From a virus (lineage: Duplodnaviria; Heunggongvirae; Uroviricota; Caudoviricetes): DNA of 15,885 nt. How positions within the stretch are numbered: the stretch's first letter is position 1; each line of letters starts with the position of its first letter. Positions 655 to 15,885 of this stretch are shown here, piece by piece. Position numbers and translations under genes: made by a program. The stretch is taken from the IMG/VR virus record IMGVR_UViG_2534681991_000026. One strand, 5' to 3'. Under the pieces are notes generated by a model. The model worked only from the letters and a program-made list of their open reading frames with translations, searched no databases and was not told the DNA's origin.

Positions 655-936
655 TTACGTACGCAGTCGTTCCGGCTTCTTCCAGTGGTACGTAATTTTT
701 GCTTTTTCCCTGTACGTCTGCACGCGGCGACGGTAGGCCAGCATTTCAAGAACGCGGATCCGTATGTTGCGCATATCCACATCATTAAGCTGGATACCAT
801 CACGGCGCATCACCTCCGCGACAACACGCGCATAATTTTCGGCGGTCACGCTGTCCGGCTGCGTGGCCTGTTCGTCATGCTGCTGGCTGATTCCAGAGAC
901 GCGGCGGATTAATCGCAGTATTTCGGCTTCTGTCAT
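655..936 (-). CDS. Hypothetical protein (93 aa) directly downstream of terL
   Basis: ORF starts 11 nt after the terL stop; TGAGGT Shine-Dalgarno-like sequence about 7 nt upstream of the ATG; same strand as the operon. No recognisable motif. Confidence 0.6.
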   Translation of the reverse strand: MTEAEILRLIRRVSGISQQHDEQATQPDSVTAENYARVVAEVMRRDGIQLNDVDMRNIRIRVLEMLAYRRRVQTYREKAKITYHWKKPERLRT

Positions 937-949
937 GCTGCTGACCTCA

Positions 950-2611
950 TTACACCCCGCTAAATTCTTCCAGTTTCTGGCGGTGGCTGTCGCTTATATC
1001 AAAAGCAAAATCCTCATGCTCTGCCTGGAATGTACCAAACGCCATCAGTGCCGCCACGCTCGGGTCTATCTTGTTCGGTGATTTTTTCTTGTTCGGCTTG
1101 ATATTGGCGTTCGCGTCACTCTGCATCACGACGTTACTCATCGACCAGGACAACACCGGATCACCACGATGCACGATAACCCTGCGGTTAACAAAAACTT
1201 CGAACGATTTCGCCGCCGGACTGAATCGAAGGTAGGTTTGCGGGAACGGCTCCACCTCAAAGCCTGCCCCCTGTAATTGCGTCCTGAGATGCGTTGCGTT
1301 CCACGTATCGAAGCCCACCAGCCTGATATTAAATTTTTCCGCGTCCTGCATGATGTCATCACGTATCCGGTCGTAATCAATGCAGTCCCCTGGCGTTGTG
1401 CGTATCCATCCCGCCCGTGCCCACTGGCGATAGATAGCGCGATTTTTATTGGCTGGGTTCTGTAACTGGAACTCCGGCAGATAATGACGGGAAACCAGCA
1501 TGATATTTTTACCGACCGGAAAGGCATAGCACACGCTGGAAATGTCGCTTGTGGATGATAAATCCAGCCCCGCGTAACATTCCTGACCGTGTAAATCTTC
1601 CTCCGTGAACTTTCCGGCGCACTCAGCCCATGCTCCGTTACCCATCCACGGGGTAGCCCCCTGACACCAGATATTAAATCGCTTTGTCATCATCTCCACC
1701 CATTGCGACGGTATGCCCCGCGCTTTCTGGATGGTTGAGGCCAGTTTTTCACGATCCACGGAAACATCAATATTAGGGTTCGCCTTTATCCACATCTCCG
1801 GATCATCAACCTCGTTTTCGTCGTCCAGTTCGTAAATCAGTACAAAAATTGAATCGTTGACCTCTTCGCCGTCCAGGATCTGGCAGCAATAATCATAGTG
1901 CTGTTTACAGGCTGAAACGACGTTGCTGCCTGATGTGGTAATGGCAAATAACAGCCCTTCGGGACGTGCCCCCATCCCCAGTTCAAGCGCAGAATAAACG
2001 CCGTTATCGGGGTGTAAGTGGTATTCGTCCACAATGGCAAGGCTGGGGTTAGTACCCTCGATGGTTGCCGCTTTTGCTGCCAGCGGCTTTAACAGGCTGT
2101 TGCTTTTCGGGTGCATCACCTTGTGGGCCTGAATATTCACTCTCTTGCGTAACGGTCGGGATAAAAGGCACATCTGACGCGCATCATCAAAAACGATCCG
2201 CGCCTGGTCGCGGCTCACCGCTGCGGTGTAAATATCCTGCTGCCCGTTCTCCATAATCAGAAACCAGTTAGCCAGAATCGCGGCTGTCGTGGATTTCGCA
2301 TTTTTGCGCGGTACTTCGATAAAGGCGCTCGTGTATTTGCGCCTTCCGGTGGCCTTAACCTTAAAGCCGAGGATGCACGCAAAGGCAAACTGCTGCCACG
2401 GTTCCAGCTCAATGGGTCTTCCACGCATCGGCCCTTTTACGTGCGGGCACACCCTGGAAAAGACAATAAACCGCTCAACAACCTCACGATCGAACATGTA
2501 AAGGGAGTTTTCAAGGTCCGAAAAGTATCGTTTAACGGCCTGTTTCAGCCGTTTACAGGCCGGAATCTTGCCCGTTTTTACGTCTTCTGCGTACTTATTC
2601 CAGGCGGTCAA
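950..2611 (-). CDS. terL: Terminase large subunit (TerL), HK97-like
   Basis: 553 aa; N-terminal ATPase region with Walker-A-like VPRKNAKST, C-terminal nuclease-like region; follows and overlaps terS by 17 nt. Confidence 0.85.
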   Translation of the reverse strand: MTAWNKYAEDVKTGKIPACKRLKQAVKRYFSDLENSLYMFDREVVERFIVFSRVCPHVKGPMRGRPIELEPWQQFAFACILGFKVKATGRRKYTSAFIEVPRKNAKSTTAAILANWFLIMENGQQDIYTAAVSRDQARIVFDDARQMCLLSRPLRKRVNIQAHKVMHPKSNSLLKPLAAKAATIEGTNPSLAIVDEYHLHPDNGVYSALELGMGARPEGLLFAITTSGSNVVSACKQHYDYCCQILDGEEVNDSIFVLIYELDDENEVDDPEMWIKANPNIDVSVDREKLASTIQKARGIPSQWVEMMTKRFNIWCQGATPWMGNGAWAECAGKFTEEDLHGQECYAGLDLSSTSDISSVCYAFPVGKNIMLVSRHYLPEFQLQNPANKNRAIYRQWARAGWIRTTPGDCIDYDRIRDDIMQDAEKFNIRLVGFDTWNATHLRTQLQGAGFEVEPFPQTYLRFSPAAKSFEVFVNRRVIVHRGDPVLSWSMSNVVMQSDANANIKPNKKKSPNKIDPSVAALMAFGTFQAEHEDFAFDISDSHRQKLEEFSGV

Positions 2612-2951
2612 GCTCGTCCTCTTCTTCTGTTTCCGGTGGATTTTTACGGCGGCTTATCGGGTCAAAACCGAGCAAAGAGGCCATTTTTATCATCACTCTT
2701 TCCGCGTCGGATTTCGCGCTTAATGCGGGGTTTCTGCTCTCTCCGCCCTGACTGTTAACAATGCTGAACCCGCGCGCCGCAAGGTCTGCGACGGCTTTCC
2801 GGTATATCGAGTAATTGACGCAATACAGTTCCAGATTACTCCAGTCGGCAGGGGTCAGGTCTCCCCGTTCCGCAAGCTGCCGCGATTTTTCCCGCCACTG
2901 CTTCACGGCGATATCATCCAGGTAGGCGGGGGCTTTCGGTGGTCTTGCCAT
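2595..2951 (-). CDS. terS: Terminase small subunit (P27-family-like TerS)
   Basis: 118 aa, MARPPKAPAYLDD...ADLAARGFSIVNSQG... typical of small terminase subunits that sit next to HNH and terL; acidic C-terminus; immediately upstream of terL. Confidence 0.75.
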   Translation of the reverse strand: MARPPKAPAYLDDIAVKQWREKSRQLAERGDLTPADWSNLELYCVNYSIYRKAVADLAARGFSIVNSQGGESRNPALSAKSDAERVMIKMASLLGFDPISRRKNPPETEEEDELDRLE

Positions 2952-3074
2952 GCTTATTTTTTCGCCAGATTATTTTTCAAAAAATTACCGTGCATAAAAA
3001 TTTGGGGAGGCGTTCGGTTCTGGGCGGGGTCGGGTTCGTCCTGAAAACTCCCCCCACCCCGTCCGGCTGCCTCA
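2952..3074. other. Putative cos / packaging-site region between the HNH-side genes and terS
   Basis: 123-nt non-coding gap; G-rich tract (GGGAGGCG...TGGGCGGGGTCGGG...CTCCCCCCACCCC, 3004-3060) with partial inverted symmetry. HNH-cos-terS is the usual layout in HK97-like cos packaging modules. Inference only. Confidence 0.35.
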
Positions 3075-3248
3075 TCAGCGATTGCGGAAACATTCCATAA
3101 CCTCGCGGTCACGGTCGTTTAATCGCGTCGCTGTGATGCGTTCTGCGCGTCCTGATGCTTTATCTTTATGCCCTGCTTCCTGTGCCTTCCATGCGTCACG
3201 CTGCCTTATAAGTCCACGGATAAGGCGGTTTTGTTCCCGCTCATTCAT
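3075..3248 (-). CDS. Small basic hypothetical protein (about 57 aa) between HNH and terS
   Basis: ORF MNEREQNRLIRGLIRQRDAWKAQEAGHKDK...; ATG overlaps the HNH stop (ATGAATGA). No strong SD; the longer upstream extension in the ORF track overlaps HNH out of frame and is probably not translated. Confidence 0.3.
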   Translation of the reverse strand: MNEREQNRLIRGLIRQRDAWKAQEAGHKDKASGRAERITATRLNDRDREVMECFRNR

Positions 3249-3681
3249 CAGCGCCATACATCCAGTTATTGCGGTTAGCGCCCCGTTCTTCCTCCTCACG
3301 GAATCCACCCGCAGCACGCTTGTTTTTTGTGGACGGATCAAGCCATTTCGTTTTCTGGTTATGACACGCCTGGCACAATGGCTGATGATTCCACTCAGGC
3401 CAGAAGAGAACATCATTACCGCCATCGATTGGGATAATGTGATCCACCACCACGGCGGGCGTGTATATTCCTTTTTCCAGGCAATGCGCACATAACGGGT
3501 TTTTACTCAGATACATGGCGCGGTATTTCTCCCACTGCCTCGTATACCCTCGCTCCCTGCTGCTGCCTCTCCGGCTGTCCTGCTGCTGGCGTGCGCTGCG
3601 TCTGTGCTCCTCACACTTGCCGGACTTCACGCGCCTGTTGCAGCCTGGTTCTGTACATCGTCTTAATGGTTGCCACGGCAT
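3241..3681 (-). CDS. HNH endonuclease (terminase-associated)
   Basis: 146 aa; Cys-rich N-terminus (CTEPGCNRRVKSGKCEEH), HNH-like core (DHIIPIDGGND...NHQPLCQACHNQKT); position just before terS as in HK97-like packaging modules. Confidence 0.85.
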   Translation of the reverse strand: MPWQPLRRCTEPGCNRRVKSGKCEEHRRSARQQQDSRRGSSRERGYTRQWEKYRAMYLSKNPLCAHCLEKGIYTPAVVVDHIIPIDGGNDVLFWPEWNHQPLCQACHNQKTKWLDPSTKNKRAAGGFREEEERGANRNNWMYGADE

Positions 3682-3974: not shown

Positions 3975-4309
3975 TTTTCCGCGCCCTCACTACAAAGAAT
4001 TTCAAGGCGTGTCCTGGCGGCATCTGGCAGCGGTTGCCCGATGATATTCAGTACACGCCCCGCCAGCGGCCCCGTATTGACCTTTATCCGACTGGTGGCG
4101 TTGATGTCCTTCCGGTAGCGTATCCATATCCTTACAGTTCCAGTCGCCAGCTCTGCACCTGATGAAATGGCCTCCTTGCTGCTGATCATGTTCACGCTTG
4201 CCCAGAGTGTGTGACCGTCCACCCACGTTTCGAGTATTTCGCCCGTCATGGCTCTGGTCTGTTTCAGGGTCTGAATCGTTACCCTGTCACGCAGTCGCCC
4301 TATGTTCAT
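3971..4309 (-). CDS. Head-tail joining / head closure protein
   Basis: Start taken at internal ATG (MNIGRLRDRVTIQ...) because it forms an ATGA overlap with the portal stop; family-typical N-terminal motif. The ORF track's 4351 start would overlap portal by 46 nt. Confidence 0.65.
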   Translation of the reverse strand: MNIGRLRDRVTIQTLKQTRAMTGEILETWVDGHTLWASVNMISSKEAISSGAELATGTVRIWIRYRKDINATSRIKVNTGPLAGRVLNIIGQPLPDAARTRLEILCSEGAEK

Positions 4310-5517
4310 TCCGGTTTTTCTCCCTCGCTGATTTTTACTTCCTGTTTCCATGCCTGGCTGAACTCATCACCACCATCACGCGGTGACAGTCCTTCACGTT
4401 CGCGGGCTTCGTTCGGACACATAACGCCGGATTTGATGCCGCGCTCATAGGTGGCAAAGCGTTCGCCAGGTGTGGCCCGTAACAGGTCCGCGCTGTCAAA
4501 CTCCACCTGATACCGGATACCAGGTACAGGCGAGGCCACCAGCAGGGCGTTTTTTATCTGCTGCTCAAAGTTCGCCAGCCACGGGCGCATCGTCATGGTG
4601 AGAAATGCGCGGCTTGCCTCGCTGAAATTGCTGTAGGTGCTGTTGCTGTATTCCTGCAAAAAAATCGGCGAGACGTTGAACATTCGGGCGATGTCTTCAA
4701 TGGTGAAGCGACGGGAGGCCAGCCATTCAGCATCCTGATTACTCATGCCCAGCTGCTGATAGCTCATACCCCCTTCAAGGATGGGCGTTTTTCCGGCGTT
4801 TCTGGCCCCTTTGTAGCGTTCCAGTGCGGCTAATGCCTGTTTGCCCTTCACGCCGTCCAGCCATTCGCCTGACGTGATAACCCCTGCCGCCATCATGCCA
4901 TCACGCATCACGCTCGCGCCGTGGCGTTGTTGGGCCAGCCCAAGCCCCAGCGATTCGCGGCAAATGGTTACAGGTGAGCGCCCCATAAAACCGTCATCCG
5001 TGGAGTAACGAAGGTGGAGAACCTCCCACGGTAAATAGTTGCGGGTGTTTCCGGTGTAAGCGTCAGTGATGCAGTAGCGCCAGTTGTGTTCTCCTGTCTG
5101 CTCCACGTTCACCGACTGCGGCGGGTAAGGATGTAAAGCCGCCGGAAAACCATCACGCCCCCACTGAATCACCGCGTAAGCATTACCGTTTAACAGGCAG
5201 TGGCGGATCATCATTCGCTTAAACTGGTAGGGAGTCTGCCACGCGTTCGGGCGCTCGTTGAGGATGTGATCGACCGGATGAGAATCAAGCCACTCGCGGG
5301 CCTCCTTCCCCTTCTCATTGCGTACCAGGTACAGGTAGCATGGCATAGTAGCCACCGCCTCAGAGATGACCGTGACGGCGTTCATGACGGCGGGGAGTGA
5401 TTCCGCTGTCCCCGATGATACGTACTCACCCGCCCCCGTGTTCGATGTGCCAGCCAGCGCCATAAATTCATCAAGCGTCATGCTGCGCTGCTCTTTTTTT
5501 CTTCTGAAAGGCCACAT
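4306..5517 (-). CDS. Portal protein, HK97 family
   Basis: 403 aa; size and position (after protease, before connector genes); GGGGGTG SD-like sequence 5 nt upstream of the ATG at 5517, which sits 1 nt after the protease stop. Confidence 0.8.
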   Translation of the reverse strand: MWPFRRKKEQRSMTLDEFMALAGTSNTGAGEYVSSGTAESLPAVMNAVTVISEAVATMPCYLYLVRNEKGKEAREWLDSHPVDHILNERPNAWQTPYQFKRMMIRHCLLNGNAYAVIQWGRDGFPAALHPYPPQSVNVEQTGEHNWRYCITDAYTGNTRNYLPWEVLHLRYSTDDGFMGRSPVTICRESLGLGLAQQRHGASVMRDGMMAAGVITSGEWLDGVKGKQALAALERYKGARNAGKTPILEGGMSYQQLGMSNQDAEWLASRRFTIEDIARMFNVSPIFLQEYSNSTYSNFSEASRAFLTMTMRPWLANFEQQIKNALLVASPVPGIRYQVEFDSADLLRATPGERFATYERGIKSGVMCPNEAREREGLSPRDGGDEFSQAWKQEVKISEGEKPE

Positions 5518-6131: not shown

Positions 6132-7289
6132 TTAATCGTCGTCCTGTGGCAGTTCCAGAATCTTGATCGCGTTCGAATCCACCACGCCACCGCCTAAATA
6201 TTTCTGCGTGAAAATTTTGATGAATCCTGGTTCTGTCAGGTTGTCCGGTCTGGTGCGAACACCCGTTTCGTGATCAACAATGTAGTAACCGCGTTTGAAG
6301 TCACCCAGGGCAATAACGTTATCCGGCATAAACTCCAGATATTCGACCGGAAGGCCCAGCAACGTATCAGGATCACCAGCCTGTAAACGGTCGCGCCAGA
6401 TGTAATCACCGTTCGCGTTCTTCACCTTCTGAAGTTTTGCCGCCGTCGTGGAGTTAACCACCCAGACCGCGTTTTTGCGGTATTTTTTACGTAATGCAAA
6501 TTTCAGGTCGATCAGCGGGTCCGCAGATGTCCACGCAAGAGACTCAGAAGGCTTAATTACCTGCAACGTACCAAAATCACGTTCTTTGTCGTTCTTCTCT
6601 GCACGGGGTACGGATAAAAAGCCTTTTGCTTTTTTGTCACCGTCGCCCACAACCAGATCGCTTTCTTCGGTTTCCGTGAAGGTGTCGCCAATCTCACCCG
6701 TCAGCCATGAAAGGATGTCCACATCGGAAAAATCCACGATTTCCTGTGTGGTGCGCGGGTACGCATAGACCGGATACAGCTTAATGCTCACCTCGTTAAT
6801 CTGCGGGGTGCTGGTCTGTTCGCGTGCCTTACCCTCTTCACCGTGGTTAACGGTCGCACCGCCAGCGGAAACAAGCTGCTTAAACTCGTTGCTGCTGATT
6901 TTCTTCACGGTACAGATGCGGCGCATGGTGGATTCATCCGCCAGCATTCGCATGATTTCGGTGTTCAGCTCGGGGATAACGGTATAACCACCATCAGCGG
7001 GAACGCCTGTACTTAATGCGCGGGTTTCACCCGTCAGAATGTAGTTTCGTAGTTCTGCGGGGTCAGTGGTCTGGCTGCTTTTACCTGGCTTGCTGCGCTC
7101 TTCGTCTGCAATGGCTTCAAGGCGGGAAATGTCTTTATCGAGGGATTCAGCTTTAGCGCGTAATTCGTCAAATTTTGCGCCCTCTGCATCGTTAAGGCTG
7201 CGGTTTTCTTTTTCCGCGTTCTCCAGCATGTCGCGCATCTGATTTTTAATGGCGGTTTTCTGCTGGCGTAATTCGATTATTCTCGGCAT
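6132..7289 (-). CDS. Major capsid protein, HK97 fold, with N-terminal coiled-coil (delta/scaffold-like) domain
   Basis: 385 aa; charged coiled-coil-like N-terminal ~100 aa (ELRQQKTAIKNQMRDMLENAEKENRSL...) followed by a capsid-like body; first gene of the head operon. Confidence 0.8.
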   Translation of the reverse strand: MPRIIELRQQKTAIKNQMRDMLENAEKENRSLNDAEGAKFDELRAKAESLDKDISRLEAIADEERSKPGKSSQTTDPAELRNYILTGETRALSTGVPADGGYTVIPELNTEIMRMLADESTMRRICTVKKISSNEFKQLVSAGGATVNHGEEGKAREQTSTPQINEVSIKLYPVYAYPRTTQEIVDFSDVDILSWLTGEIGDTFTETEESDLVVGDGDKKAKGFLSVPRAEKNDKERDFGTLQVIKPSESLAWTSADPLIDLKFALRKKYRKNAVWVVNSTTAAKLQKVKNANGDYIWRDRLQAGDPDTLLGLPVEYLEFMPDNVIALGDFKRGYYIVDHETGVRTRPDNLTEPGFIKIFTQKYLGGGVVDSNAIKILELPQDDD

Positions 7290-9534: not shown

Positions 9535-11289
9535 TTATAAAAACGCGTCGCAATCCTCTGTTGTTGTCACATTGGTTTGCGTAAGTCCTTTAACCCTGCG
9601 CGTTATATATTCACATCCGTAAACTTTTGCCGCTGGCTTCATGGCCTTGCTGAAATCAGCCACGTTTAGCGGCTTGCTTCTTCCTGCGTATGCCATAAAC
9701 GCCAGATAGACGCGGTAAAGGCTGTTTCTGGTCGTGTACTTCACGGAATCGCCACCGCCACCCATCATCAGGCCGCGCGCTTCCTCCAGAAAATTCAGGA
9801 ACTGGCAAAACTCAATAACCGGATCCGTCTGTTGCTTTATTGCCAGTGCTTCATCACCGTCGCGCTGTTCCAGGAGTAAAGCCCGTGCCTTTTCAGGGTC
9901 GGCAAAGTTCGCCAGTAATCGGCGGATAATCACAGGGATTTCAGCCGCGACCTTCTCCGGCAAATCCTTGTCCTTTTCTGCCTCGCTAACGATATTGTCA
10001 AAGCGAAAAATAACCCGACGACGTGCCACGCCTCCGGCCCGTTCGGTGAATATCATCGGGTTGTTGTTGGTCGTCAGCACCACCGCCCTGATTACCGCCG
10101 TGAAACGCTTTTCATATTTCGGGTTAATTTCCACGGGGTCGCCGCCCGTGATTTTCTTGATGCCCGTTCCTTCGCCTGTATATTTCGGCTGGTCTGCCAG
10201 GACGATAAGACGACTCCCGACAACCTGCGCACGTCCACCAGCATCATCAAGCGATGTCATTTCAGCGCTTACCGTGTTCTGTTTCCCTGCCAGAAGGCTG
10301 GCTATGTGCGTGAATGTACTTTTACCGCTTCCGCCGTCTCCGGTGGCCTCAATAAACATCTGCCAGTCGTACCGGTTCGCCATAATCATGTACAGCGCGG
10401 CACATATACGCATCATCTTGCGCGGGTCTTTTCCGGCTGCGTGCTCAAGGCATTTATGAAAATTTGGCGCGTTATCGCGGATGTTCTCCCCTGGTGCTGG
10501 TGGCGTGTACTCAATACCGTTGTGCGTGGTGATCCAGTTCTCCGGCGTGTGCGGGGAAAATTCCCCCGTTTTCAGGTCAAGCGCACCATTGGCGAACGGC
10601 AACAAATCGCCGGACGGCTCGCCCATTGGTTCGGCAATAACTTTTAACGCTTCAACGGCGTTATTGATTACGCGCTTGCTGAAAGTGGCCCTGTGCTCTG
10701 AATAGATCGCCACCATTTCGCGGCTAAGTTCCATTGTGCTGACCGGACACCATAACCCGCCGCGCCATACGTGAACGATTTCACTTTCAGGATGTACGCA
10801 AACGCCATCAAAGCGATCGGAAAGCAGCTGAGCGCGTTCACTGTCCGCCATCTGCGAAAGTTGCGCCTTTTGCTTTACCGGAAGCTCAACGAACAGACCT
10901 TCAGAAAGATTCTGGCGCTCACGGGCCAGATATTCGCGCCAGTTCTCCACCTCCTGAACGTGCATTCCCTCAGGGTAAAAATTTGCATCCTGTACACCTG
11001 CCGCCGCCAGCTTCTGACCAATCGCCTTTATCATTACAGGTTCAAGATGTCCGGCCCTGAATATGCGTACTGATTTTCGGCCTTCCGGCACAATTTGCAG
11101 CTTATCCAGTTCGGATAACTGCTGATCCCCAAGCCACACAGGAGGCTCATTATCTCCGGCCATACGCGCGTCATGTTCCTGCCATTGTTTAGCGTGTGAC
11201 CAGGCATCACTACCCGCAAAAATAATGACTTCTGTTTCTTTGTGTTTTATGCCGCGTGACTGCTGTTTTACGTTCGGTGCAAGTTTCAT
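9535..11289 (-). CDS. Replication protein: P4-alpha-like primase/helicase
   Basis: 584 aa; N-terminal primase-like region and C-terminal NTPase with Walker A GDGGSGKST; typical of satellite and PICI replication modules; start overlaps the upstream gene (ATGA). Confidence 0.8.
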   Translation of the reverse strand: MKLAPNVKQQSRGIKHKETEVIIFAGSDAWSHAKQWQEHDARMAGDNEPPVWLGDQQLSELDKLQIVPEGRKSVRIFRAGHLEPVMIKAIGQKLAAAGVQDANFYPEGMHVQEVENWREYLARERQNLSEGLFVELPVKQKAQLSQMADSERAQLLSDRFDGVCVHPESEIVHVWRGGLWCPVSTMELSREMVAIYSEHRATFSKRVINNAVEALKVIAEPMGEPSGDLLPFANGALDLKTGEFSPHTPENWITTHNGIEYTPPAPGENIRDNAPNFHKCLEHAAGKDPRKMMRICAALYMIMANRYDWQMFIEATGDGGSGKSTFTHIASLLAGKQNTVSAEMTSLDDAGGRAQVVGSRLIVLADQPKYTGEGTGIKKITGGDPVEINPKYEKRFTAVIRAVVLTTNNNPMIFTERAGGVARRRVIFRFDNIVSEAEKDKDLPEKVAAEIPVIIRRLLANFADPEKARALLLEQRDGDEALAIKQQTDPVIEFCQFLNFLEEARGLMMGGGGDSVKYTTRNSLYRVYLAFMAYAGRSKPLNVADFSKAMKPAAKVYGCEYITRRVKGLTQTNVTTTEDCDAFL

Positions 11290-14667: not shown

Positions 14668-15885
14668 TTATTTTCTTCTGGCTACGGGTAGCGTGGTTAC
14701 GTTTTCATGTGCTCCCGCCAGTATCCCTAACCGCTCCGTCCACATATCCAGCGCATCACGTTTCGCATCCAGATAACGGGAATGGTTATAGACTCGTTGC
14801 ATCCCTGGCATCTGATGACCTGTAAGCTGCTCCACGACGTGAGGATCCGCGCCTAAATCGTTCAGCATCGTTGTAAAGGTGCGCCGGATGTCATGCAGTG
14901 ACCATTGAGGGTGTTTTAGCCTCCTGTGCGCTAATCTGCCGTACTGCGATACGCTGGCCTCCTGTTTCACTTCCCCCAGCAATAAGCCCGTGTGCCTGTT
15001 CTGCTCCACCAGCTTCATGACAAACGGCAGGATCGCTTCCGGTATGGGCCGGAATATTGCGACCTTCGTTTTGCTGTGCTCCTTCGGAACGGTCCATAGC
15101 ATTTCCGTAAAATCCCACTCCCCGATCTCCGATAACCTCAGTTCTACCGTTCTGGCACCGAAGACAATCAGGAGGCGGATTAACGCGACGTAGTAAGGGG
15201 AAAATATTTTTTTATCCAGTGCCTGCAATAACTCGCCAAGTTCTTTGGTGCTTAAGACACGCTCGCTTATATCCGGTTTTTTCCCAACGTCCGCAACGTT
15301 CAGATCGTCCAGAACGTTGCTGATTGCATAGCGCCGCCTACGGCAGAACTTAAGCGCCTGTTTGCACGCCTGTAGCACGAATCCGGCAGTAACAGGCGTT
15401 CGCTTTGCCACCTGGTCAAAACAAGCCAGCCAGTGCCGTAGCTCGCATTTATCCAGCGGCATAGCACCAATGTGCTGTATTACGTGATTATTAAGTCGCC
15501 TTTTCAGGGCGATATAATCCACGCGGTTTTCCTTTACGTAAGACTCAAGCCAGTAGGTAAGCGCATCGCCAACCGTTACGGGCTTTAACGCTTCCTGTAC
15601 GGTGTAATTCATCTCATGACGTGGATTTTTCCCCTCAGCCAGCCATGCGCGACACTGTGCGGCTTTTTCCCTGGCTGCTTTCAGGCTCAGATCAGGATAA
15701 CTTCCCAGCTTAATGCGTTCGGGTCGTGTCTCCCTTCCCGTTCCGGCCCTGTATGTGAAATACCATGTTAATTTCCCTGATGTTAAATATTTCACGCTCA
15801 GGTTTCCGCCATCACTATAAAACGTGTTTTTCTCAGCTGGCTTACCATGAAGTTTCCTTAGCAATGTATCGCTCAGTTTGTTCAT
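14668..15885 (-). CDS. int: Tyrosine recombinase / integrase, P4 family
   Basis: 405 aa; P4-type N-terminus (MNKLSDTLL...FYSDGGNLSV), catalytic-domain motifs (HDIRRTF, ...RVYNHSRY); start codon at the window edge, so the cognate att site is expected just beyond 15885. Confidence 0.9.
   Translation of the reverse strand: MNKLSDTLLRKLHGKPAEKNTFYSDGGNLSVKYLTSGKLTWYFTYRAGTGRETRPERIKLGSYPDLSLKAAREKAAQCRAWLAEGKNPRHEMNYTVQEALKPVTVGDALTYWLESYVKENRVDYIALKRRLNNHVIQHIGAMPLDKCELRHWLACFDQVAKRTPVTAGFVLQACKQALKFCRRRRYAISNVLDDLNVADVGKKPDISERVLSTKELGELLQALDKKIFSPYYVALIRLLIVFGARTVELRLSEIGEWDFTEMLWTVPKEHSKTKVAIFRPIPEAILPFVMKLVEQNRHTGLLLGEVKQEASVSQYGRLAHRRLKHPQWSLHDIRRTFTTMLNDLGADPHVVEQLTGHQMPGMQRVYNHSRYLDAKRDALDMWTERLGILAGAHENVTTLPVARRK

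Follow-up and report, generated by a model that had tools for sequence, protein, structure and literature searches.

The 123-nt gap upstream of terS very probably holds the cos site of a capsid-forming PICI, at which the DNA of the island is recognised and cut for packaging. The window, a stretch of 15,885 nt taken from the IMG/VR virus record IMGVR_UViG_2534681991_000026, is an EcCIEDL933-like capsid-forming PICI (cf-PICI) of E. coli, that is, a phage-parasitic island. A cos site is expected in such elements, and cohesive ends are mentioned in the preprints of Alqurainy et al. (2022) and He et al. (2025), which, as far as their texts were available, neither locate nor dissect the site. The site predicted here has apparently not been mapped before, and it is located by comparative evidence. 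An earlier note on this DNA had proposed an island-specific cos between the HNH-side genes and terS. That proposal is supported by the gene context, the conservation of the gap, breaks in the records of Klebsiella particle DNA, the reported cohesive ends, a match to the cos of HK97 and the absence of the site from phage records. The cues that the note had relied on, G-richness and a palindrome, are not the informative features.

Identity of the island and gene context

Every gene of the window lies on the minus strand. The published gene order of the cf-PICIs EcCIEDL933 and KpCIDSM30104, int ... primase, capsid-protease-portal-connectors, hnh-terS-terL, matches that of the window (Table 1). 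For EcCIEDL933, Alqurainy et al. (2022 preprint) described capsid, protease, portal and connectors, followed by hnh-terS-terL, in an element without tail genes. When the RefSeq annotation of an identical island is set beside the published description, an integrase, an alpA-type regulator, a primase-replicase, the capsid set and hnh-terS-terL are all found, in about 15 kb and without tail genes. Of 5426 complete E. coli genomes, 382 have a match to a 501-nt probe taken around the gap, always in the chromosome. O103 and O121 strains match the probe with 100% identity and an O157:H7 strain with 99%, and the region of the window is 99-100% identical to the islands of O157, O103 and O121 strains.

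Table 1. Features of the island and of the gap upstream of terS, in window coordinates
Feature	Position	Strand	Remarks
Integrase	14668-15885	-	
Primase	9535-11289	-	
Major capsid protein	6132-7289	-	Followed by protease
Portal	4306-5517	-	Followed by head closure and connector proteins
HNH endonuclease, packaging accessory nuclease	3241-3681	-	Pfam HNH PF01844, E=9e-8; PHROG 144, E=8e-43
60-aa gene, WP_001196871.1	3075-3257	-	Between HNH gene and gap; full-length match to PHROG 3173 (unknown function), E=5e-34
Intergenic gap, candidate cos region, 123 nt	2952-3074	-	No gene annotated inside by RefSeq
Box A, G-run GGGGTGGGGGG	3050-3060	-	GGGTGGGGG nearly invariant in 31 genome loci and 92 distinct variants
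Semi-conserved spacer AGTTTTCAGGACGAA	3035-3049	-	In aligned relatives TTTCAGGAC, TTTAAAGAC or AAAAATGAC plus AA
Variable GC-rich segment CCCGACCCCGCCCAG, fixed length	3020-3034	-	Length constant ±1 nt in 92 variants
Conserved C-rich box AACCGAACGCCTCCCC, predicted cosN	3004-3019	-	Consensus [A/C]ACC[A/G]CCCGCC[C/T]CCTC
Box B, A/T-tract element AAATTTTTATGCACGGTAATTTTTTGAAAAATAATC, predicted cosB / small-terminase binding site	2968-3003	-	Single copy in window
Variable leader immediately before terS start codon	2952-2967	-	Conservation falls; AGGAAA-type ribosome-binding sequences differ among relatives
terS, small terminase, P27 family	2595-2951	-	Pfam Terminase_4 PF05119, E=1e-23; PHROG 83, E=3e-39
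terL, large terminase	950-2611	-	Pfam TerL_ATPase PF03354 and TerL_nuclease PF20441
93-aa gene	655-936	-	PHROG 1561
KpCIDSM30104 sequence holding the expected end region			...CACCACCCGCCCCCTCAAAT...

Around the gap the order on the one strand is HNH gene, small gene, gap, terS and terL. The gap is bordered by the stop codon of the 60-aa gene and by the ATG of terS (2951-2949). The earlier description of the gap as non-coding agrees with the RefSeq copy of the identical island, which shows nothing in 2952-3074. RefSeq names the product of 3241-3681 'HNH endonuclease signature motif containing protein'.

The product of the 60-aa gene is arginine-rich, and its C-terminal ...RDRE..ECFRNR is kept in many relatives. 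Among the relatives compared, the gene is missing from the Xenorhabdus, Aeromonas, Citrobacter and Pasteurella islands. It was reported in the 2022 preprint that loss of 'hypothetical gene 1792' severely lowers transfer, and the candidates for this gene in the window are the 60-aa gene and the gene at 655-936. The latter is the only gene after terL in the window. In some Klebsiella-type cf-PICIs a large tail tape-measure-like gene directly follows terL (L002, 2036-4333; L364, 11637-15044), which is notable in a family said to be tail-less. In a group of E. coli islands with 89% TerS identity (P0005-P0063), many gene callers give a TerS of 165 aa by extending the open reading frame upstream through the cos core. 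These calls are probably an annotation artefact; RefSeq gives 118 aa.

Composition and conservation of the gap

The gap had been described as strongly G-rich on the minus strand. The strings quoted in support are found on that strand, but the description fails for the gap as a whole, which has 33 G and 30 C. The minus strand is instead tripartite, with a G-rich part (3074-3038, 19 of 37 G), a C-rich part (3037-3004, 19 of 34 C) and a part that is 75% A+T (3003-2952). For the G-run motif GGGTGGGGG the window has 3 matches at one mismatch or fewer where 3.5 are expected, so that the motif is no rarer than by chance. The gap had also been called partly palindromic, and an inverted repeat of 13 nt, in which 11 positions pair, is present (3022-3034 / 3052-3064); it is marginal, however, since 44 of 1000 composition-preserving shuffles reach it. 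The repeat is specific to the E. coli lineage and is missing in most relatives because one of its arms sits in the variable segment. Repeated R-type sites were looked for in the gap and none were found. With G about equal to C overall, a G-run that is not rare and a repeat that is marginal, composition alone would therefore not single out the gap. The feature of the gap that stands above chance is its conservation.

A terS-based scan with one genome per species, covering Klebsiella, Aeromonas, Citrobacter, Serratia, Rahnella, Erwinia, Pantoea, Xenorhabdus, Pectobacterium and other genera, gave 33 loci, and 31 of them, Escherichia included, entered an alignment of about 1 kb. Mean pairwise identity among these 31 loci is 0.01-0.45 in the small upstream gene, 0.72 in the G-run (3066-3052) and 0.44 in 3036-3022, against 0.80-0.89 next to the latter bin. 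It peaks in 3021-2977, with 0.80 in the first bin, 0.89 in 3006-2992 and 0.80 in 2991-2977; the interiors of terS and terL have about 0.6-0.86. The most conserved 45 nt of the whole stretch of about 1 kb, in 31 islands from many genera, are non-coding (3021-2977).

Pooling of the IMG/VR loci gave 118 distinct sequences, of which 92 were left after trimming. Across these 92 variants the alignment from box A to box B is almost indel-free. Only the G-run departs from this, through 1-nt differences in its length, which rule out a coding function. The consensus of the coding strand reads GGGTGGGGG, then a TTTCAGGAC-like element plus AA, about 15 variable GC-rich bases, [A/C]ACC[A/G]CCCGCC[C/T]CCTCAAATTTTTACGCACGG..ATTTTTTTGAAAATAAAAC and a variable leader with the ribosome-binding site. 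The boxes and their layout are the same in a Pasteurella multocida island with a TerL identity of 69%. RNAalifold found no consensus structure in the 92 variants (-1.7 kcal/mol), and fixed spacing without a foldable structure would fit a site that is bound by protein as duplex DNA. Box A shows a homopolymer length polymorphism, with a run of 5 to 8 G in E. coli islands (L037-L116) that are nearly identical in other respects.

Short perfect palindromes that abut the conserved ..ACC occur in the variable segment of many relatives (L005-L235), for example GGTGCC-A-GGCACC, CCTC-N5-GAGG, GTCC-N5-GGAC and CCCG-N7-CGGG. Their enrichment is slight (mean best stem 3.77 against 3.04 in shuffled sequences), their registers differ and they are absent from the window and from the O157 variants. 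A conserved hairpin or RNA structure in the core was considered and rejected on these observations and on the RNAalifold result.

Specificity of the site

When 50,697 phage records were searched by sensitive blastn with the gap sequences of E. coli and Klebsiella, all matches were to records derived from cf-PICIs and none was to a genuine phage. Published genetics has established that HNH, TerS and TerL of the island are each needed for transfer of the island and are irrelevant to transfer of the helper, and that the converse is also true. An island-specific site fits packaging of this exclusive kind, in which the island relies on HNH, TerS and TerL of its own.

Contig ends at the site were looked for as well. 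In IMG/VR, scans based on TerS and on the box B pattern gave no contig ending at the site; all the cf-PICI matches span it, and most are prophage-derived. A pattern scan of metagenomes also gave no contig ending there. Three candidates were discarded. The metagenome locus L320 appeared to start 1 nt before AAATTTTT, but this is a storage boundary inside a 22.5-kb contig and not a contig end. The ENA contig that carries P0098 spans the site. The record of BiPBO1, a distant relative, starts arbitrarily at the terS ATG and is uninformative as a comparator.

Ends of particle DNA in Klebsiella homologues

A TerL search of phage records gave only four close records, and two records derived from Klebsiella particles bear on the ends of packaged DNA. 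LR881103 (vB_KppS-Ant) is a linear record of 16,548 bp, a SPAdes assembly of Nextera XT reads from a lysate on K. pneumoniae DSM 30104, and, as its authors remarked, it is over 99% identical to the genome of the host. From this host and this identity it follows that vB_KppS-Ant is the cf-PICI KpCIDSM30104 studied by He et al. It was described as a filamentous ssDNA phage and filed under Escherichia; it is actually this island. The record is a permutation of the integrated island, which starts 22 nt before the terS ATG and ends ...GGGGTGGGGGAGGTTTTCAGGAC. The contig end at ...TTTTCAGGAC lies in the spacer and is equivalent to position 3038 of the window. The chromosome of ATCC 13883 (= DSM 30104) has exactly 69 more nt between the two ends, within the homologous gap, although this 69-nt loss could be an artefact of assembly or trimming.

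PQ569648 (Klebsiella phage P12620-1) is a 106.5-kb chimeric record, a chimera of unknown construction, in which the last 15.9 kb or so are a cf-PICI. The island part begins at the second base of the terS ATG and breaks off 4 nt short of the stop codon of the small gene; 134 nt, and with them the whole gap, are missing. Tagmentation libraries lose the ends of linear molecules. The true ends are therefore expected about halfway along each missing segment. This point is CCCCCTC|AAATTT in vB_KppS-Ant and CACC|CGCCCCC in P12620-1; the two midpoints are 9 nt apart and both are in the C-rich box.

The gap is missing from both of these linear records, which were read as finished records of Klebsiella homologues with 81-82% TerL identity to the E. 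coli island. The missing segment is at a common place in both, and neither record is circularly closed, which is not the pattern of headful packaging. He et al. (2025 preprint) have reported that DNA from KpCIDSM30104 capsids gives a concatemer band through cohesive cos ends. The Klebsiella particle records are good circumstantial evidence for a cos site in the gap, not proof of it.

Comparison with the cos site of HK97

The island shares with HK97 a large terminase of the HK97 type together with a dedicated HNH endonuclease: PF03354 and PF20441 are found in HK97 gp2 and in the island TerL alike, and PF01844 is found in both HNH proteins. HK97 has the end of its HNH gene at 39413, the junction of its genome ends at 39732|1 and the start of terS at 50, which places cos between the HNH gene and terS. 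The candidate site of the island is placed likewise, after the HNH gene and a short way before terS, with all of these on one strand. The HK97 sequence at the cut is ...GGGCAGGGGGGGGGATCAAATCTTCAAAACCTTTGCCCCAAATGACCGCCGCCAAA | GTTTGAATTTAACGCTAACCCGATTTTTTTAG... Chechik et al. mapped the TerS site of HK97 to +15..+29, with an essential G:C pair at 21 and an essential A-tract at 24-29; the ends of HK97 DNA have 3' overhangs of 10 nt.

A 93-position nhmmer profile of the cf-PICI core was run against both strands of the circularised HK97 genome. The best match spans the cos junction in the same orientation (39683-39762, model positions 4-82, collinear) with 9.0 bits and E=0.043; in a control sequence of 327 kb the best match outside real cf-PICI sites had 6.4 bits. 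The end of the HK97 record, ...GACCGCCGCCAAA, compares with ...CACCGCCCGCCCCC in the cf-PICIs. Both sites have a G-run about 42-47 nt upstream of the cut (in HK97 a G10 run, at 42 nt), a C-rich ACCGCC(C)GCC at the cut and AATTT..ACGC..GATTTTTTT downstream. Box B resembles +6..+30 of HK97, AATTTAACGCTAACCCGATTTTTTT, which holds the mapped TerS site, and the A-tract of the cf-PICIs, ...ACGCACGGTGATTTTTTT, is at a spacing that corresponds to +15..+29, a resemblance at the level of sequence.

There are also clear differences. Most bases of the two cos sites differ, as the score of 9 bits and E=0.043 indicates. The TerS proteins of HK97 and the island have no detectable sequence homology and belong to different PHROGs, and HK97 gp1 has no Pfam match. 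In HK97 there are 319 nt between the HNH gene and the cut, a space that in the island is occupied by the 60-aa gene. The cut and overhang of HK97 have been demonstrated, whereas those of the island are predicted. The likeness of the core to HK97 may reflect shared ancestry of the sites or convergence, and it is not proof of an equal mode of binding.

When +1 of HK97 is aligned through the T-tract, the cut falls at ...CCCGCCC(C)|C(C)TCAAA, or about 3007|3006 in the window. A nick of the coding strand is predicted at this position in the C-rich box (±6 nt) because the HK97 alignment with its T-tract distance and the midpoints of both missing segments are concordant; the chances that the nick lies within 6 nt of it are put at about even. 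The predicted cut is 55 nt before the terS ATG, compared with 49 nt in HK97. A 3' overhang of about 3016-3007 would be expected, its polarity and length being assumed from HK97.

Alternative readings of the gap

A first alternative accepts the gap as cos and moves the staggered cut into the 15 nt of the variable segment (3034-3020). The conserved boxes on either side would serve the terminase as reference points for measuring, and self-pairing ends would be free to drift. The strictly fixed length and low identity (0.44) of this segment between conserved boxes speak for such an arrangement, as do the palindromes of many relatives with their slightly longer stems, and in the HK97 model it is the distance from bound TerS that sets the position of the cut. 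On the other hand, both missing-segment midpoints and the HK97-anchored distance point 10-25 nt downstream of the variable segment, to the C-rich box. For the cut to lie in the variable segment, both assemblies would have to have lost far more from one end than from the other, and on the same side, and the palindromes differ in register and are missing in the window and the O157 variants. A cut in the variable segment is thus an unlikely variant of the preferred reading, a cos site that is cut in the C-rich box.

It is much less probable that the conserved core is an expression signal for terS and terL (a promoter, an antiterminator or an element for RNA stability or translation) instead of a packaging site. 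The core is directly upstream of terS, and its A+T-rich part could host transcription signals; an expression role would also be compatible with a cos and the two are not mutually exclusive. A scan of the coding strand of the gap, however, gave no sigma-70-like promoter and no intrinsic terminator, a search of the gap against Rfam gave no match at E<=1, and the 92 variants share no RNA fold. Conservation stops about 17-20 nt before the ATG, exactly where the ribosome-binding sequences vary, and an expression signal leaves the breaks in the particle-DNA assemblies unexplained.

A pac site, with recognition by TerS, headful packaging and permuted ends, is the least probable reading and can nearly be set aside: TerS-bound sites near terS are typical of pac phages too, but an HK97-type TerL with a dedicated HNH protein is a hallmark of cos packaging, the two independent particle assemblies are linear with a common break region and are not circularly closed, and cohesive-end concatemers have been reported for KpCIDSM30104 (He et al., 2025 preprint).

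Proposed mechanism

If the gap is a cos site cut in the C-rich box, packaging could proceed as follows. After the island excises and replicates, its own TerS would bind the A/T-tract box (about 3003-2968), a short distance before the terS gene. TerL and the HNH protein would then nick both strands in a staggered manner in the C-rich box (about 3017-3004), the coding strand near 3007|3006, and cutting would leave 3' cohesive ends like those of HK97. Starting at the terS side, packaging would travel round the circularised or concatemeric island until the site is met again. The right end would then be formed by the orf60/HNH side, which includes the G-run of box A, and box A may serve in termination or in contact with the nuclease complex. 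From its place on the right-end side of the predicted cut, box A is possibly a cosQ-like element or a contact for terminase or the HNH protein. Since the site occurs in no known phage and the island has its own TerS, TerL and HNH, exclusive packaging of island DNA would be accounted for.

Relation to other systems and significance

The cos of lambda is tripartite (cosQ-cosN-cosB), with an upstream element, a cleavage site and a downstream region for binding of the small terminase by the terminase genes. The predicted island site has this tripartite logic in common with lambda, but the terminase families differ, and lambda has a 12-nt 5' overhang whereas a 3' overhang is expected for the island. 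EcCICFT073 (a classical E. coli PICI with Rpp-TerS), P4 and the cos-SaPIs also carry a cos that chooses the DNA to be packaged, as is proposed here. The cos of P4 and of the cos-SaPIs is identical to that of the helper, whereas the site in the window matches no deposited phage. Classical satellites use the terminase of the helper, redirected or not; in the island the terminase, the HNH protein and the site are all its own.

cf-PICIs are recently described, widespread satellites that have their own capsids, package only themselves and move between species in their particles. The core of about 95 bp could conceivably be a near-universal cos of the cf-PICIs of Enterobacterales, Aeromonas and Pasteurellaceae, such that any cf-PICI terminase could package any DNA that bears it; we consider this doubtful. 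Were it true, one short portable sequence would mobilise plasmids across genera by way of cf-PICI capsids. The variable segment of fixed length might instead be a lineage-specific discriminator or hold freely drifting cohesive ends. The current picture of HNH-dependent terminases is unchanged by the site, which belongs to a known class of cos and is to be expected in this known satellite family. Its location provides a cis element of about 95 bp for probing the specificity of packaging and a handle for engineering cf-PICI particles as vehicles for DNA delivery.

The site can also serve as a marker of immobilised islands, such as a Shigella flexneri copy without box B and the terS start. In this island, from strain SFBU1023 (L004, 3960-4010), a deletion of about 100 nt is flanked by CCCCGCC repeats, the first in the variable segment and the second in terS codons 7-9, and with box B and the terS start deleted the ability to be packaged has probably been lost. 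In Erwinia tracheiphila ICMP 5845 (L035, 3880-4010) a large internal deletion has taken out the capsid gene through the HNH gene and the cos region, and codon 8 of terS directly follows the N-terminal 38 or so codons of the major capsid gene in a fusion.
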